From: a virus
Taxonomy: Duplodnaviria > Caudoviricetes
Virus record (IMG/VR): IMGVR_UViG_3300021399_000003
Span: 64,001-128,000 of that record
Length of the DNA stretch: 64,000 nucleotides
Direction: 5' to 3' (one strand)
Position numbers and translations under genes: made by a program. Below are positions 8,314 to 27,404 of the stretch, one piece after another. The notes beneath the pieces are model-generated. The model ran no database searches and was not told where the DNA came from. It worked only from the letters and a program-made list of their open reading frames with translations. Within the stretch, counting starts at the first letter, position 1; every line of letters begins with the position of its first letter.

Positions 8314-8390
8314 TAGCAGGCGTGGCTGGATTTGAACCAGCGAATGCATGGGTCAAAGCCATGTGCCTTAACCACTTGGCTACACGCCTA
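8314..8390 (-). tRNA. tRNA-Gln(TTG)
   Basis: cloverleaf; CATGG-CTTTGAC-CCATG; GTTCAAATC T-loop; ends GCTA. Confidence 0.92.
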
Positions 8391-9108
8391 TAATTTTATT
8401 ATACCATTCTATTAGTTCTTTTTTCTTAGACGGAATATTATTTTTTACACACCATTTTACAACTGCTTTATCAGAAACTCCATATTTTCTGCCTACTGCA
8501 GAAAAACTAGATTCAACAATTTCTTTTGCCAGTTGAATACCTTGCGGGCGTGCAGATATTTTTTCTTGTCTTTCTTGTATTTTTTGTTCTTTTTGACGTT
8601 GTTTTTCGTTTCGAGCAATATCTATTAAAGACGGTCTAATAGGATAGATTAAATAATCTTTTCTCCAAGAAGCTCCACTATTAATTGCTCGAATAGTTCT
8701 TCCAGAAACATTATATTTTGCACCAATAATATCGCTATTATCTAATGTATTTTTTAAATCATTAACAATATTATTAAAAATTTCGTCCGTCATTTTAATT
8801 GCATGAGGAGCATTTTGACCACCTTCTGTTCGATTATATCCATTATTAAAACTGTCATAATAAGAAATCCAATATTTTTCTTTTTCATCTAATTCGGATA
8901 CAAGACATTCTTCTAATATTTCAAAAGAAAAATTATTTAATCCATACAATCTCATATCTTTATATAATGGATTATTATAATTGACTATATTATTACCTAA
9001 ATAATCTGTTCTATGATTTCTCCAACGAGTTTTAATATCTTGTGCTTGACCAATATAAACTAATCCATTTATTAAATTAGTTATTTTATAAATACCACAT
9101 TGTACCAT
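8380..9108 (-). CDS. GIY-YIG homing endonuclease
   Basis: GIYKITN..VYIGQ, R...H, E..WI, GYN..GG. Confidence 0.88.
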   Translation of the reverse strand: MVQCGIYKITNLINGLVYIGQAQDIKTRWRNHRTDYLGNNIVNYNNPLYKDMRLYGLNNFSFEILEECLVSELDEKEKYWISYYDSFNNGYNRTEGGQNAPHAIKMTDEIFNNIVNDLKNTLDNSDIIGAKYNVSGRTIRAINSGASWRKDYLIYPIRPSLIDIARNEKQRQKEQKIQERQEKISARPQGIQLAKEIVESSFSAVGRKYGVSDKAVVKWCVKNNIPSKKKELIEWYNKIIGV

Positions 9109-9136
9109 AATATCACTCCTATTTGTGATTTAAATT

Positions 9137-9205
9137 ATAATATTGGCTTAATGAATAGGCATTATTATCTCAAAAGTTAATTACTCTTTTGCTACCCAAT
9201 ATTAT
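9137..9205 (-). promoter_or_regulatory. structured anti-SD leader of homing endonuclease (copy A)
   Basis: 3-way junction shared with 10406-10462; loop CCTATT complementary to AATAGG of RBS. Confidence 0.6.
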
Positions 9206-9206
9206 T

Positions 9207-9283
9207 TGGTGCGAGTAGAGGTAGTCGAAACCTCATCTCCTGGGTGGAAGCCAGGTATTCGAGCTGTTGAACTATACACCTGC
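9207..9283 (-). tRNA. tRNA-Gly(TCC), imperfect acceptor stem
   Basis: CCTGG-CTTCCAC-CCAGG; T arm GAGGT-TTCGACT-ACCTC; ACCA end. Confidence 0.7.
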
Positions 9284-9466
9284 ATAATGCCACTTTAACC
9301 GCTGTGGCCGCGTGCTCCCCAGGTACGCTTGAATCAGAGGCGCGGGCAAGTCTATCAACAAAGTCGCAAAGCGACTTTTCCGCTCTTTCTACACATGGTA
9401 GATGAGCTATGTAGTAACCCCGTGTTTAATGAGCTTTCTGCACGCTACTCTGGCCAGCTCAATATT

Positions 9467-9624
9467 TGTGGTGTGCTATTACGCCAAATCTCATGTTCCC
9501 ATTATCCGTAGGCACATCATACTCAAAAGGGCGTTCCACAATCGTAGCCTTTTGATACATTTCGCACCCACGGGAGAACTTAGAACTCCTTAGCTGGTGG
9601 CTGCTTCTAAGCCAACAGTCCACA
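9467..9624 (-). ncRNA. 23S rRNA H43/H44 (GTPase-associated centre) mimic with 100-nt hairpin insertion
   Basis: TGTTGGCTTAGAAGCAGCCACCA...GAGT[insert]GCGTAATAGCACAC closed by TGTGG/CCACA. Confidence 0.65.
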
Positions 9625-9626
9625 TT

Positions 9627-9722
9627 TGGCGACAGGCTTCGGACTTGAACCGAAACATCAGTATATACTAATTACTCTCTGATTAGCAATCAGATGCCTT
9701 ACCAAATTAGGCTTAGCCTGTC
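9627..9722 (-). tRNA. tRNA-Ser(GCT)
   Basis: TCTGA-TTGCTAA-TCAGA; long variable arm; GACAGGC/GCCTGTC-GCCA. Confidence 0.88.
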
Positions 9723-10387
9723 TTATCATTATCTTGCCATTTCCAAATATAGCCATAAGCGATATTCCTTAGTCCTCGTGCGCATTGACTAATATGGTTA
9801 CTACCTGATTCTTTTCCTAAACTTTTTGCAGCAGAATAACAAGAATAAAATTTATTGATTAAATTACCATTTAAATCATATTGACATAAAATATTATAGT
9901 TATTTTTTATTTGTTTTTCATTAAATAAATCATTTTTTAATTTTATTTCTTTGTTCAAAATAGTAGATAAAACATTCTCTGCGGTATAATTTTCAATGAA
10001 AAAATTAACATTTTGATTTTTTTGTATAGGTGTAAAACTTAAAGTGATTTTATTAGAATAATTTTCACATTCTTGAACAGGAATTAAATAACATTGATTA
10101 TTAAAGTAAGTTGCAAATAAATCAATTTCATTACTAGAATAATTATGTTTAATGTTTTCTTTACCTGATGTTGTTAGACTATATAAATTAAATTCAATTC
10201 CAGTATCTTTTTCTTTACAAGTTTTTACTTGTATTTTTAACAATTTCAACTTAATATCTAATATCATATCATATCTGCAATCTTCTCCAATTGGAATGCT
10301 TATATTATATCCTAAAGAAGTAAGATATGCTTGACATAATAATTCTGTTGTGATTCCTTTAATTTTAGTATCTACCATTTTTATCAC
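9713..10387 (-). CDS. PD-(D/E)XK homing endonuclease with NUMOD1-like C-terminus
   Basis: KG..TE, RYDMILD..KIQVKT, EIDLFA, QYDLNG...AYGYIWK. Confidence 0.82.
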   Translation of the reverse strand: MIKMVDTKIKGITTELLCQAYLTSLGYNISIPIGEDCRYDMILDIKLKLLKIQVKTCKEKDTGIEFNLYSLTTSGKENIKHNYSSNEIDLFATYFNNQCYLIPVQECENYSNKITLSFTPIQKNQNVNFFIENYTAENVLSTILNKEIKLKNDLFNEKQIKNNYNILCQYDLNGNLINKFYSCYSAAKSLGKESGSNHISQCARGLRNIAYGYIWKWQDNDKTG

Positions 10388-10405
10388 TCCTTTGATAAAA
10401 CTTTG

Positions 10406-10462
10406 TAGGGCTTGCGAAGGAGCGCATTATCTCATCAGTTAATTACTCTGATGCTACCCCTA
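10406..10462 (-). promoter_or_regulatory. structured anti-SD leader of homing endonuclease (copy B)
   Basis: same junction consensus as copy A; loop CTCCTT complementary to AAGGAG RBS. Confidence 0.6.
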
Positions 10463-10606
10463 GTGCGCCATCACGGATTTGAACCGTGGACTCCTTGATT
10501 AATGGTGGAGACCGCCAGAATTGCACTGGCACTATCAGTTTGTTCCTTTACTTCAATGCGCTTGCAGTCCCCAAGTCAAGTGCTCTACCAACTGAGCTAA
10601 TGGCGC
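10461..10606 (-). tRNA. tRNA-Lys(TTT) split in the anticodon by a 70-nt tRNA-like insert (10503-10572)
   Basis: exon1 GCGCCATTAGCTCAGTTGGTAGAGCACTTGACTT + exon2 TTAATCAAGGAGTCCACGGTTCAAATCCGTGATGGCGCA gives canonical cloverleaf. Confidence 0.88.
10503..10572 (-). ncRNA. nested tRNA-like element, Ala/tmRNA-TLD-like
   Basis: GGGGACT/GGTCTCC acceptor with G3:U70, A73, CCA; T arm GCCAG-TGCAATT-CTGGC. Confidence 0.75.
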
Positions 10607-10607
10607 A

Positions 10608-10682
10608 TGGCGTCCTTACTAGGAGTCGAACCTAGATTTTGAACTTAGAAGGTTCAAGTCCTATCCTTTAGACGATAAGGAC
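10608..10682 (-). tRNA. tRNA-Arg(TCT)
   Basis: TGAAC-CTTCTAA-GTTCA; GTTCGACTC; GCCA end. Confidence 0.9.
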
Positions 10683-11008
10683 ATTCTTTTATAATATTTT
10701 TCTTCATCTTTTCCGCAATTATCACACCAAGGAAGAATCCAACCAGTAGAATATTTTGTAGCAGGTTGGCCGCAAACACAACACGTTCGTGCGCTTAATT
10801 CTTCGTATTTATTTTCAATTGCATCTATTTCACGCCAATAAGTCATATCACATCTTGCAATTACATCAAGACTTCCCCATTTCTCTTTTAGGTCACAAAT
10901 GTAATAAGTTGGGTCAATAGCTTCACACTCTTCTATCATTTTTCGCGCAAGTTCAATCCAACCAGAAGGAATTGAAGAAAGCCATTTATAATTATTTACT
11001 TGCTCCAT
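10661..11008 (-). CDS. hypothetical protein (KEKWGSL motif, C-terminal CxxC pairs)
   Basis: ORF; GW..L, KEKWG, CCVCG, CDNC. Confidence 0.65.
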   Translation of the reverse strand: MEQVNNYKWLSSIPSGWIELARKMIEECEAIDPTYYICDLKEKWGSLDVIARCDMTYWREIDAIENKYEELSARTCCVCGQPATKYSTGWILPWCDNCGKDEEKYYKRMSLSSKG

Positions 11009-13812: not shown

Positions 13813-14396
13813 ATACCCTATTTAATAAAACCGTTGCGGCCTTCGCCGTACTTGTATTATCCTTCTAACATATTCAACCACGTTGGAGATGAAGGCTGAG
13901 CCACGGGTAGCAATTCCGGACTTCTTCACCCCGTCTTTCGACCAACAACGGAGAGACTGTTTACTCTCAAATTTCACCTAAACCATTCAGCACAATAATA
14001 TCTAATCAAATCTATTAGATTCATTGTCGTTTTGGGCTACTTTTTCTGTGAACCTCGCTTATATCCTATTTCTAGGTTTCAACGACATCAAGCGTCTTGT
14101 TGGCATTTCCAAGGTTTGCGGTGGTAGCCAGCCACATCTAAAACGCCTAACTTGGATTCAGGTCACGCTTTTAACGCTCACCTTCTATTGCGACGCCGCG
14201 AGGAGCCAAGTTTTTGTTAGCGGATAACCAAGCACCTATCCTTAACATTAGGAGTTTCTCCATATCGCTAGTCATTACTGATTTCGCGGCCTTGGCTTGA
14301 AAGTATCCCATCAAGTTTGGGGCTGTTATTCAGATAGTCCAAGCAGAGTGGTTAGCTCTTCTTCACTTGGTTCAACCATTTTATTAAATAGGGTAT
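13813..14396 (-). ncRNA. large structured ncRNA, ROOL-sized candidate
   Basis: 584-nt ORF-free region closed by perfect 18-bp terminal helix; dedicated promoter at 14424-14452. Confidence 0.5.
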
Positions 14397-16084: not shown

Positions 16085-16218
16085 TGGTGCCCCAGACGGG
16101 ACTTGAACCCGTACACCCTCACGGATAGCGGATTTTGGTCGTGGGAAGGAGTGCTGCTCTCCAACAAGCCACTGGGCCCACGTAAGTCCGCTGCGTCTGC
16201 CAATTCCGCCACCAGGGC
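16085..16218 (-). tRNA. tRNA-Leu(TAA) split in the anticodon by a 47-nt minihelix-like insert (16136-16182)
   Basis: GCGGA-CTTA|AAA-TCCGC restored on removal; Leu D loop GGAATTGGCAGAC, long variable arm, ACCA. Confidence 0.88.
16136..16182 (-). ncRNA. nested tRNA minihelix-like element
   Basis: CGTGGG/CCCACG-ACCA; T arm GGAG-AGCAGCA-CTCC. Confidence 0.7.
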
Positions 16219-16938
16219 ATAAAAACCTGATGTAACCCTCACGCAGCTAGATGGTTACTTTGAATAGTACTTTAAGGTATACTGCTAATATATAGGCTAT
16301 CAGGCGTAGCCTTAACAAGTAAATGTGTGGTTGTTCGATATTTGCTCCTTTTATTTCTGAACCACACTAAGAAGCCCTTAAATCGACACTCCTCGAACAG
16401 GGTGCGTCCGCGACCATCACGCCGCTATGCATTGTTAACAATGGGCGATTTTTATCGTTGTTCGCCGCAACTACCTAGGTAATAAGTCTCCTAGTGGTGC
16501 GCTTCTTTGAGAGGCGTAAGGAGAACATTTGCGGTGGCGCCTCACAATTAACCGCAATTTCCCTTATAAAGCCCAGTGGGTGGACTCTGGCGCCGAAGTT
16601 TTATTTTCTAGTTTGTGGTGAACTTCAAACCCTTTATAAACTCCATTAATTGCTTCATACTAGAAAAGTAATTAATTTCATCGTTTCATAATCATCTTGT
16701 GATTATGCCGAATACGCTTTCACGTATTCTAAAACTCCTTGTACGCTTGGTACATGAGATAGCGGTGACGCCCTTCAAAAGTACTGGCCGCAATTTTTCG
16801 TTCAGCGTCTAATCCTGCCACTCATCAAGCTTTTCAGCTTGCTCACGGCGAGTCCAAGAAGAAGAAAATACAGTACGAGAAGTCTTACGCACAACTATCA
16901 TTCCTTTCCTTGTTTCTATAAATATTATATCACAATTT

Positions 16939-20323: not shown

Positions 20324-20965
20324 TTATGTGCTATTTTTATCGTATATCATATATTCCCATTTATATCCGCCAGTAGTCTTACGTTTTCCATTACATACTT
20401 CTTGAATATGATTACTGCGGCAACCAATAGCTTCTGCTGCCTCTCGTGCCGAAGAATACACTTTAATTAATGTACCATCTTTTAATAACTGTTTAACAGG
20501 TTTACTATACAAATGTTGCATAGTTTGATAACCTCTTAATATCCGTTCTTGTGATGGAATATCTTTTAAAGCTTGAGATACTGTTGTATCACAATATCCA
20601 GTAATTTCTTTAATAGATTTTTTACTATATCCCTCATTCCATAAATTAATAATTAATTCATAGCTGGCATAAGGTTTTCCATCGCCGCCAATAGTAGCAT
20701 TATAACCATTAGAAAATGAATTATAACTTTCAATCCAAAAACGTTCTTTTTCATCTAGTTCTTCCAAAGTGCATTCTTCTACTATTTCAATATGAAAATT
20801 TTCAATTCCATATTTATTCATGGCAGAATATAATGGACGATGTTCTTTTGATGACCGTTTTGCGTCTTTACAATGTTCTTTCCAACGACGTTCAATAGTA
20901 AAAGCAGTTTTGCCAATATAAATTTTTCCATTAATATCATTAATAATTTTATAAATGTATGGCAT
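20324..20965 (-). CDS. GIY-YIG homing endonuclease with NUMOD1-like C-terminus
   Basis: YIYKI..YIGKT, RWKEH, GYN..GG, GGYKWEY. Confidence 0.87.
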   Translation of the reverse strand: MPYIYKIINDINGKIYIGKTAFTIERRWKEHCKDAKRSSKEHRPLYSAMNKYGIENFHIEIVEECTLEELDEKERFWIESYNSFSNGYNATIGGDGKPYASYELIINLWNEGYSKKSIKEITGYCDTTVSQALKDIPSQERILRGYQTMQHLYSKPVKQLLKDGTLIKVYSSAREAAEAIGCRSNHIQEVCNGKRKTTGGYKWEYMIYDKNST

Positions 20966-21488
20966 AGTTAAATACCTCCTATTTATAATAGGACTAAAGT
21001 GGTTTGATTATAAAGTATAGTTTACTAAGTTCATAGATAAACACTTCTCCCAATCCACTTGAGTCCTGAAAATTCAGGAAATTTTAAAATCTGTGTCTAC
21101 GGACACTTCCTCCCGAATCAATAACATTTGATAACCCAGCTGCCTACTGGGGAGCCAGGGTAACTTTGCTACAGGTGCACCGGTATTACCGCTCATGTCG
21201 CTCCTAACGACTTAATTACATAAATCAACCGGTTGTTTTAAATGAAGTGTCTTCTATCATAGGTCATGACTTCTATGGCAGTTATTACTTCATTTAATAT
21301 GCTGTATTTAATTGGTTTTTCCTATTTATATAGCGCCGATAAGACCATTTGGAGTAACAGTTTGCTCTCCTTTTGCGCTCTAACTTATATTGCACCCTCT
21401 GCTTCACAGGAATCGAACCCGATATAAGTTAGAAACTTATCTTTTAGATAAGATTAAGTTTTTCACAGATAAAACTTTAAAAACTGGC

Positions 21489-27250: not shown

Positions 27251-27404
27251 TAGTCGGGAACCTGGGACTCGAACCCAGGACACACGGCTTATTGGTCATG
27301 AAGGATAGATTTGAACTATCATTATCTTCTGCTAGACAGAAGTAGTTTTCCAATTTAACTTACTTCATGAAGGCCGCTGCTCTGACCTACTGAGCTAGTT
27401 CCCG
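27251..27404 (-). tRNA. tRNA-Ile(TAT) split in the anticodon by a 77-nt full tRNA (27293-27369)
   Basis: GCGGC-CTT|ATAA-GCCGT restored on removal; canonical D and T arms. Confidence 0.87.
27293..27369 (-). tRNA. nested cloverleaf with CTA (amber) anticodon
   Basis: CATGAAG/CTTCATG-ACCA; D arm AGTT/AACT; CTTCT-GTCTAGC-AGAAG; GATAG-TTCAAAT-CTATC. Confidence 0.72.

Follow-up and report, generated by a model that had tools for sequence, protein, structure and literature searches.

Homing endonucleases are selfish DNA cutters whose expression must be restrained, and two such genes of a phage genome, like many of their relatives elsewhere, are preceded by what is probably a new class of structured 5' leader RNA of ~100 nt, in which one hairpin loop (L3) would clamp the ribosome binding site (RBS) of the nuclease gene by pairing with a second loop (L4), a further loop (L2) would form a dimer, and a three-way junction would set the geometry. 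Judged by comparative sequence analysis, its four helices (P1 to P4), the complementarity of L3 to L4 and the self-complementarity of L2 are all under selection. The window analysed here, a stretch of 64,000 nucleotides, covers positions 64001-128000 of an IMG/VR virus record that is 169,459 bp long and carries direct terminal repeats. DNA identical or close to the leader locus also occurs in gut metagenome runs from cattle, sheep and other sources. All genes around both leaders are located on the minus strand, within a long tRNA cluster that also contains ROOL RNA and drum RNA. An earlier note on this DNA had described a three-way-junction leader in front of both a GIY-YIG and a PD-(D/E)XK gene, a description borne out when the locus is read on the minus strand, with Pfam confirming both open reading frames. 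The features are as follows.

8380..9108, minus strand: GIY-YIG homing endonuclease ORF (Pfam)
9106..9205, minus strand: leader copy B, from the 5' arm of P1 to the GIY-YIG start codon (covariance model R1, 84.3 bits)
9112..9129, minus strand: P4 hairpin of copy B, 5-bp stem; ATG at 9106-9108
9154..9159, minus strand: L3 of copy B, 6-nt loop of P3 (9149-9164), complementary to 9118-9123
9177..9185, minus strand: L2 of copy B, 9-nt loop at the end of the 6-bp P2 (9171-9191); central palindrome identical to that of copy A
9207..9281, minus strand: tRNA-Gly(UCC) with encoded CCA (ARAGORN)
9713..10378, minus strand: PD-(D/E)XK (PDDEXK_5) plus NUMOD1 homing endonuclease ORF (Pfam)
10376..10462, minus strand: leader copy A, from the 5' arm of P1 to the start codon of the PD-(D/E)XK gene (R1, 67.1 bits)
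10379..10400, minus strand: P4 hairpin of copy A, 8-bp stem, with the 6-nt loop L4 (10387-10392) being the Shine-Dalgarno (SD) sequence
10417..10422, minus strand: L3 of copy A, 6-nt loop of P3 (10413-10426), complementary to L4 over its whole length
10439..10447, minus strand: L2 of copy A, 9-nt loop at the end of the 6-bp P2 (10433-10453); palindrome of 6 nt in its centre (10440-10445)
10464..10606, minus strand: insert-bearing tRNA (Rfam tRNA, 58 bits over 143 nt; insert ~70 nt)

Both copies start at a tRNA 3' end, as had been claimed: copy A begins 1-2 nt past the discriminator of the insert-bearing tRNA, and copy B begins 2-4 nt past the encoded CCA of tRNA-Gly. The 9-nt P2 loop and the junction letters are identical in the two copies, while P1 (up to 10 bp in copy B, 9196-9205 with 9137-9146), P2 and P3 differ yet stay paired, exactly as written in the earlier note. 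Equally correct was its statement that the P3 loop of each copy can pair with six letters at the SD of that copy, namely 9154-9159 with 9118-9123 in copy B and 10417-10422 with 10387-10392 in copy A. A P4 hairpin around the SD is predicted by RNAfold in both copies; its 3' arm directly adjoins the ATG at 10376-10378 in copy A, and in copy B its loop contains the L3 complement together with the 5' part of the SD. The fourth hairpin, the palindrome in L2 and two further copies in the same genome were absent from that first description. The pattern J1/2-P2-L2-P2'-J2/3 has exactly two matches in the window, at 9165-9195 and 10427-10457 (minus strand), where dinucleotide shuffles expect 0.00.

The family was collected by exact-pattern scans of IMG/VR, with the full pattern searched first and J2/3, J1/2 and L2 then relaxed in turn, and by one metagenome scan. 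Dozens of phage contigs of 4-330 kb were obtained in this way from IMG/VR and more from the metagenome, and wherever P2 was paired, it was accompanied by P1, P3 and complementarity between the P3 loop and the SD of the next gene. Over all searches, 112 distinct elements from gut and rumen phage contigs were parsed. Covariance model R1, run over 50 whole contigs, recovered nine further, more divergent copies and a third copy in the window's genome (G000:C1:49973-50035). A fourth, strongly diverged copy (G000:C1:33733-33794), which scores only 14.8 bits with R1 with the filters off, carries other letters in J1/2 and J3/1 and is preceded by a full -35/-10 pair. A second covariance model, R2, found no further strong copies in 25 genomes and missed this fourth copy. 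The window's genome encodes at least eight nuclease genes. The leader precedes four of them, and a fifth (window 20699-20965) is preceded by nothing more than a plain anti-SD hairpin at 20963-20990.

Among isolated phages, BLAST with the locus and with the leader alone against 50,697 records gave only tRNA or chance matches and no convincing member; the best BLAST candidate, from Bacillus phage BpSp, was rejected as a terminator-like hairpin that has no match to the covariance model. A scan of prokaryote genome contigs yielded only five loci, in Clostridia-type MAGs, plus chance matches. A new covariance model and an Rfam scan had both been proposed in the earlier note; Rfam 15 returned nothing on the leaders, neither over the whole window at gathering thresholds nor by cmscan of 9000-10720 at E up to 10, where only tRNAs and chance matches below 21 bits appeared. 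Full-text searches of the literature found no description of the leader, which may however be among the entries of a catalogue of 10,006 unnamed viral csRNAs (PMC10690425).

The leader is a selected RNA structure and not a product of chance. Covariation of P1-P3 was measured on a model-based alignment of 67 distinct sequences, in which 92.9% of the cells are standard-paired as compared to 61.5% in shuffles; changes on both sides occur in 18 of 19 pairs, the observed covariation is matched in 0 of 500 shuffles, and the paired cells fall to 29-47% when the pairing partner is slid along. P2 is paired in 100% of cells, with 6 bp in nearly all copies and an invariant C-G at its base, while P1 varies in length from 2 to more than 8 bp and P3 from 4 to 11 bp. 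The purine-rich junctions read G-N-A-G, A-G-(A)-U-A-A and R-G and are 88-100% conserved, a range inflated by the search patterns, such that true junction conservation is somewhat lower, as illustrated by the fourth genomic copy.

The contact between L3 and the SD is the second comparative signal. At least six Watson-Crick pairs link L3 to the element's own SD region in 94% of the elements, compared to 6% for the SD regions of other elements, so that the loop-SD covariation in homologues on which the earlier note had staked its reading is present; the 40 distinct pair types include many with letters outside the SD consensus. Furthermore, a stem of at least 4 bp directly flanks the L3-complementary stretch in 95% of 63 distinct elements, compared to 41% in cross controls that combine the 5' and 3' flanks of different elements, with mean stem lengths of 6.4 and 3.4 bp, respectively. 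On this comparative basis the SD is placed in L4, the 6-7-nt loop that a fourth hairpin presents, because the flanking stem is so regularly there, and L3 is complementary to L4 from end to end, a kissing loop supported by covariation. The L3-paired stretch ends mostly 8-9 nt 5' of the start codon, and the 3' arm of P4 occupies the spacer between SD and start, sometimes taking in the AUG; as in SD-sequestering elements generally, the SD is base-paired in a conserved helix, here L3:L4, which is flanked by P4. Of the translational repressor pseudoknot proposed in the earlier note, the repressor reading is the best one, with loop and SD covarying over ~40 pair types, and the contact itself is better drawn as a kissing loop with P4 than as a plain pseudoknot.

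A cis-acting translational clamp on nuclease synthesis is, as far as the sequences permit a judgement, the most likely function, with dimerization, a ligand or a protein as its input. It can be rationalized that L3:L4 and P4 would occlude the SD and the spacer and keep the RBS shut, such that little nuclease would be made, or only at a particular time, despite an abundant tRNA transcript or a strong promoter. L2 would pair with L2 of a second leader molecule in a DIS-type kissing dimer, so that the concentration of leader RNA, or the assembled dimer, would decide whether the clamp is open or shut, while the invariant junction would set the geometry and may also bind a ligand or a protein. That P2 is fixed at 6 bp, the junction invariant and the loop palindromic argues for more than a static hairpin; a plain hairpin such as that at 20963-20990 would be enough for constitutive repression, so that the elaborate fold implies an input.

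One such input would be a small molecule. In a riboswitch, the junction would be the aptamer for, e.g., a nucleotide-related signal of the infection stage, and the ligand would stabilize or release the L3:L4 kiss. Consistent with this, stems that covary freely surround a junction of about ten near-invariant letters, the topology is like that of three-way-junction aptamers, and the SD is held by a separate expression platform, P4, giving the generic combination of a conserved core and a platform. A riboswitch is nonetheless unlikely: no Rfam aptamer matches at E up to 10, the junction is small, the downstream genes are selfish nucleases without a metabolic theme, and the palindrome in L2 is not accounted for by a ligand pocket. 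A purine-type three-way-junction riboswitch in particular was considered and rejected, since L2 is self-complementary, L3 pairs with L4 instead of L2, and Rfam gives no match.

Another distinctive feature of the leader is this self-complementary L2 loop, of 9 nt, in which two letters, a 6-nt palindrome (loop positions 3-8) and one letter follow each other. In the model alignment, where the core was unconstrained, a Watson-Crick palindrome of at least 6 nt occurs in 15 of 19 distinct loops, whereas shuffled loops with a palindrome number 1.9 on average and seven at most in 2000 trials, and no such palindrome occurs among 43 P3 loops. In scans that left L2 free, all genuine elements carried the palindrome at these loop positions. 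When the metagenome was scanned with the outer pair alone fixed, 17 of 21 distinct loops are palindromic in the four free inner letters, for which the chance is 1/16. Overall the loop is palindromic in 95 of 99 cases, a proportion inflated by the search patterns, and copies found by the covariance model alone also carry the palindrome. Eight different palindromic cores occur, and one further loop, palindromic with G.U pairs, is intermediate between two of them. The few exceptions, elements L258 and L177 and four loop types of the metagenome scan, are one change away from a palindrome; some of them precede decayed genes, and L258 precedes an apparently intact one. A loop of ~9 nt whose central 6-nt palindrome is kept through compensatory change is the hallmark of DIS-type loops, and the L2 sequences thus suggest RNA-RNA dimerization. 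This is, to us, among the clearest comparative signals known for a functional RNA homodimer in a prokaryotic mRNA.

Only 2 of 39 elements with G/C-containing cores have the hexamer a second time within -100 to +400 nt; since it so rarely recurs nearby, the partner of L2 would have to be another molecule. Two L2 classes coexist in the window's genome, with two copies each, and many complete genomes hold a single leader copy, so that homodimers would be needed there. By nearest-neighbour calculation, the self-duplex of the commonest core, which is all A-U, is worth only -0.4 kcal/mol, and that of the most stable core -9.1 kcal/mol; by these modelled energies, dimerization of the all-A-U class would require extra stabilization or a high local concentration. 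The flanks of the palindrome are purines at all three positions in the main class, with C or U at some positions in variants. Given the short linker from P1 to P4 in some copies, the L3:L4 contact may form in cis or, in a dimer, in trans. P3, the kiss and P4 together amount to 17.8 +/- 2.2 bp, near the 18 bp of P2, the kiss and P2'. No compensation between the lengths of P3 and P4 was seen (rho about 0), and the geometry of a closed dimer stays speculation for this reason.

Taken further, the leader may tentatively be regarded as an RNA-only homodimeric device joined through L2, possibly with exchanged L3:L4 contacts in a closed three-rod bundle, in which the selfish nuclease would be translated according to how concentrated its mRNA is. 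If true, this would amount to a sensor of dosage or infection stage that uses neither a protein nor a metabolite as input; we know of no description of such control for bacterial or phage mRNAs. On the other hand, a phage or host RNA-binding protein, Rop-like or dimeric, could read the junction or the kisses and set translation or decay. P2 fixed at 6 bp, the invariant closing pairs and the junction letters would suit such an operator, as would two kissing-type helices, the kind bound by Rop, which recognizes loop-loop helices without sequence preference, and a weak A-U kiss would profit from a clamp. Such an operator is distinctly unlikely, as no candidate protein emerged and the element is spread over phages of 66 to 330 kb; a protein that reads L2 by its sequence is excluded by the variation of the L2 core.

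The genes behind the leaders encode free-standing homing endonucleases of the GIY-YIG, HNH or PD-(D/E)XK type. Among 59 downstream proteins there are 24 matches to GIY-YIG, 13 to HNH_3, 6 to HNH and 3 to PDDEXK_5, as well as NUMOD1/4 and HTH modules. The gene behind the weakest element resembles a tail-fibre gene. Unrelated ORFs lie behind leaders of 93-97% identity (over 105 nt) in at least four cases; the relative L046 matches the window exactly as far as the ATG and no further, with an HNH-type ORF taking the place of the GIY-YIG gene. As unrelated nuclease ORFs have been swapped behind near-identical leaders, the leader is a module in its own right, independent of the ORF. It looks like a portable expression controller for selfish genes, one module that serves three unrelated superfamilies and is swapped between genes.

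Swaps exactly behind the leader could also be read at the DNA level, with the conserved DNA serving as a homology arm in a homing target or a recombination site; G.U pairs and compensatory changes, seen across four helices and two loop contacts, are signatures of RNA, here on the minus strand, and speak against a DNA site. A new self-cleaving ribozyme could be suspected from the three-way junction with a conserved core, typical of small ribozymes, and has no ribozyme family match in Rfam against it; both the ribozyme and the DNA-level element are scarcely credible. A hammerhead ribozyme (CUGANGA plus GAAA) was considered as well and rejected, being a chance word across P2'/J2/3 of copy A that occurs neither in copy B nor in most homologues.

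With respect to transcription, 26 of 68 elements follow an ARAGORN tRNA at -4 to 6 nt, and others follow tRNA-like ...CCA ends; an extended -10 box stands 7-13 nt upstream of P1 in at least 13 elements. Since it starts either directly after a tRNA or shortly after an extended -10 box, the leader is predicted to form the very 5' end of the mature mRNA. The residence in tRNA operons suggested in the earlier note is hence common, and it is not required, as the elements with their own extended -10 promoter demonstrate. Inspection by eye of the segment from P1' to the SD revealed no conserved late promoter. This position, with P1 starting 0-6 nt past a tRNA 3' end or shortly downstream of a -10 box, would also fit an element of processing or stability, i.e., a mark for the cut between mRNA and tRNA, an RNase III substrate or a protection against 5' exonucleases, with translation control being secondary. 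The stack of P2, the kiss and P2' would measure 18 bp, and nearest-neighbour energies put the extended P2 duplex 6 kcal/mol below a pair of monomer hairpins; in addition, one 251-nt contig assembled from an RNA library covers 9106-9259 and spans tRNA-Gly and leader, a weak indication. It is very unlikely that processing is the main role, because many copies have no upstream tRNA and the tracking of the SD loop by L3 in 40 versions is left unexplained.

The ~100-nt size makes the question of how nucleases are tamed directly testable. Furthermore, with two orthogonal kissing loops and several specificity classes, the leader is a compact natural part for RNA engineering.

To our knowledge, only simple, idiosyncratic hairpins have been known until now to restrain homing endonucleases in T4-like phages. 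RNA structures that sequester the RBS have been described for I-TevI, I-TevII/III, mobE of Aeh1 and segB (PMC3014915). The leader resembles the I-TevI, mobE and segB hairpins of T4 type in that an RNA in cis hides the SD of a phage homing endonuclease gene, presumably to limit or delay nuclease synthesis, and segB resides in the tRNA region of T4 as the leaders do in the tRNA cluster. Unlike these single, local hairpins without conserved sequence, the leader combines a conserved junction, a kiss and a dimerization-type loop in one module common to three nuclease superfamilies. Among riboswitches, the L5:L13 kiss of the cobalamin riboswitch is the closest parallel, a folded receptor domain capturing a downstream RBS hairpin by loop-loop pairing, and preQ1-II, SAM-II and guanidine-II riboswitches also capture the SD; in contrast to these, the leader has no match in sequence or structure, no known ligand and no metabolic gene theme. 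In the ColE1 RNA I/RNA II and TAR/TAR* kissing complexes, loops of 6-7 nt are paired over their whole length, but these are antisense or designed pairs, whereas in the leader a single mRNA, or two copies of it, would supply both loops, the SD being one of the two. RNA oligomers are regarded as uncommon in nature; oskar mRNA is dimerized by a palindromic loop in its 3'-UTR (PMC7357161). L2 shares with the HIV-1 DIS and oskar loops the 9-nt size, the 6-nt palindrome with 2 + 1 unpaired flanks and a palindrome that covaries yet stays self-complementary (PMC7357161). It differs from them in being a predicted dimerization loop of a phage mRNA leader that has no apparent role in packaging or localization, in flanks that are not always purines and in a commonest core made up entirely of A-U pairs. 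Thus, cis repression at the RBS of homing endonuclease genes is known, and what is new is the architecture of the leader, its spread over three nuclease superfamilies and its putative dimerization loop.

The leader family, whose members form a three-way junction (P1, P2 and P3) 5' of homing-endonuclease genes, has two variants at its edge, one in the genome to which the window belongs (G000) and one in a related phage contig (L262).

G000:C1:33733-33794, minus strand: divergent fourth leader copy, outside the window
L262:118-183, plus strand: weakest leader-like element (37.5 bits), with an all-A-U palindrome

In the fourth copy, the letters of the junction strands J1/2 and J3/1 differ, P2 comprises 5 bp, its loop L2 is palindromic, and the complement between the P3 loop (L3) and the SD extends over 9 nt; this copy shows the family to extend beyond what the models pick up. 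The ORF behind the L262 element is tail-fibre-like and encodes no nuclease, and the element may be a relic, or a leader module that serves a non-nuclease gene. A further GIY-YIG gene of the window is without the three-way-junction leader; a simple hairpin, with a -10-like box upstream of it, pairs a 6-nt anti-SD to the SD of this gene.

20699-20965, minus strand: GIY-YIG domain of the further gene
about 20963-20990, minus strand: simple hairpin

The tRNA cluster that holds the window's two leader copies also contains ROOL and drum RNAs, and a G+C-rich stretch in which neither an Rfam match nor a long ORF was found.

13818-14394, minus strand: ROOL RNA (298 bits)
16591-16686, minus strand: drum RNA (60 bits)
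9282-9626, minus strand: G+C-rich stretch (~345 nt) between tRNA-Gly and tRNA-Ser

Over 9585-9621, contigs from RNA libraries align at a depth in the thousands with 85-95% likeness, which fits a segment similar to abundant rRNA.

10464-10606, minus strand: long tRNA match (Rfam)
16088-16218, minus strand: long tRNA match (Rfam)
27254-27404, minus strand: long tRNA match (Rfam)
27293-27369, minus strand: tRNA with CUA anticodon, labelled Pyl (ARAGORN)

Since the three Rfam matches span 131-151 nt, these tRNAs hold inserts of ~50-80 nt. Nested inside the 151-nt match is the CUA tRNA, a possible amber suppressor of the window's own phage.

In relatives, outside the window, many leader-bearing nuclease ORFs contain 1-9 in-frame TAG codons each (L004, L097, L102, L114, L257, L258, L260 and others). 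The TAG sites fall on glutamine positions of homologues, for example in the YIGQ motif, and the ORFs match Pfam models at full length once TAG is read as Gln. The phages concerned appear to recode TAG to glutamine; such recoding would place the synthesis of the nucleases under a second control, acting at a late stage.
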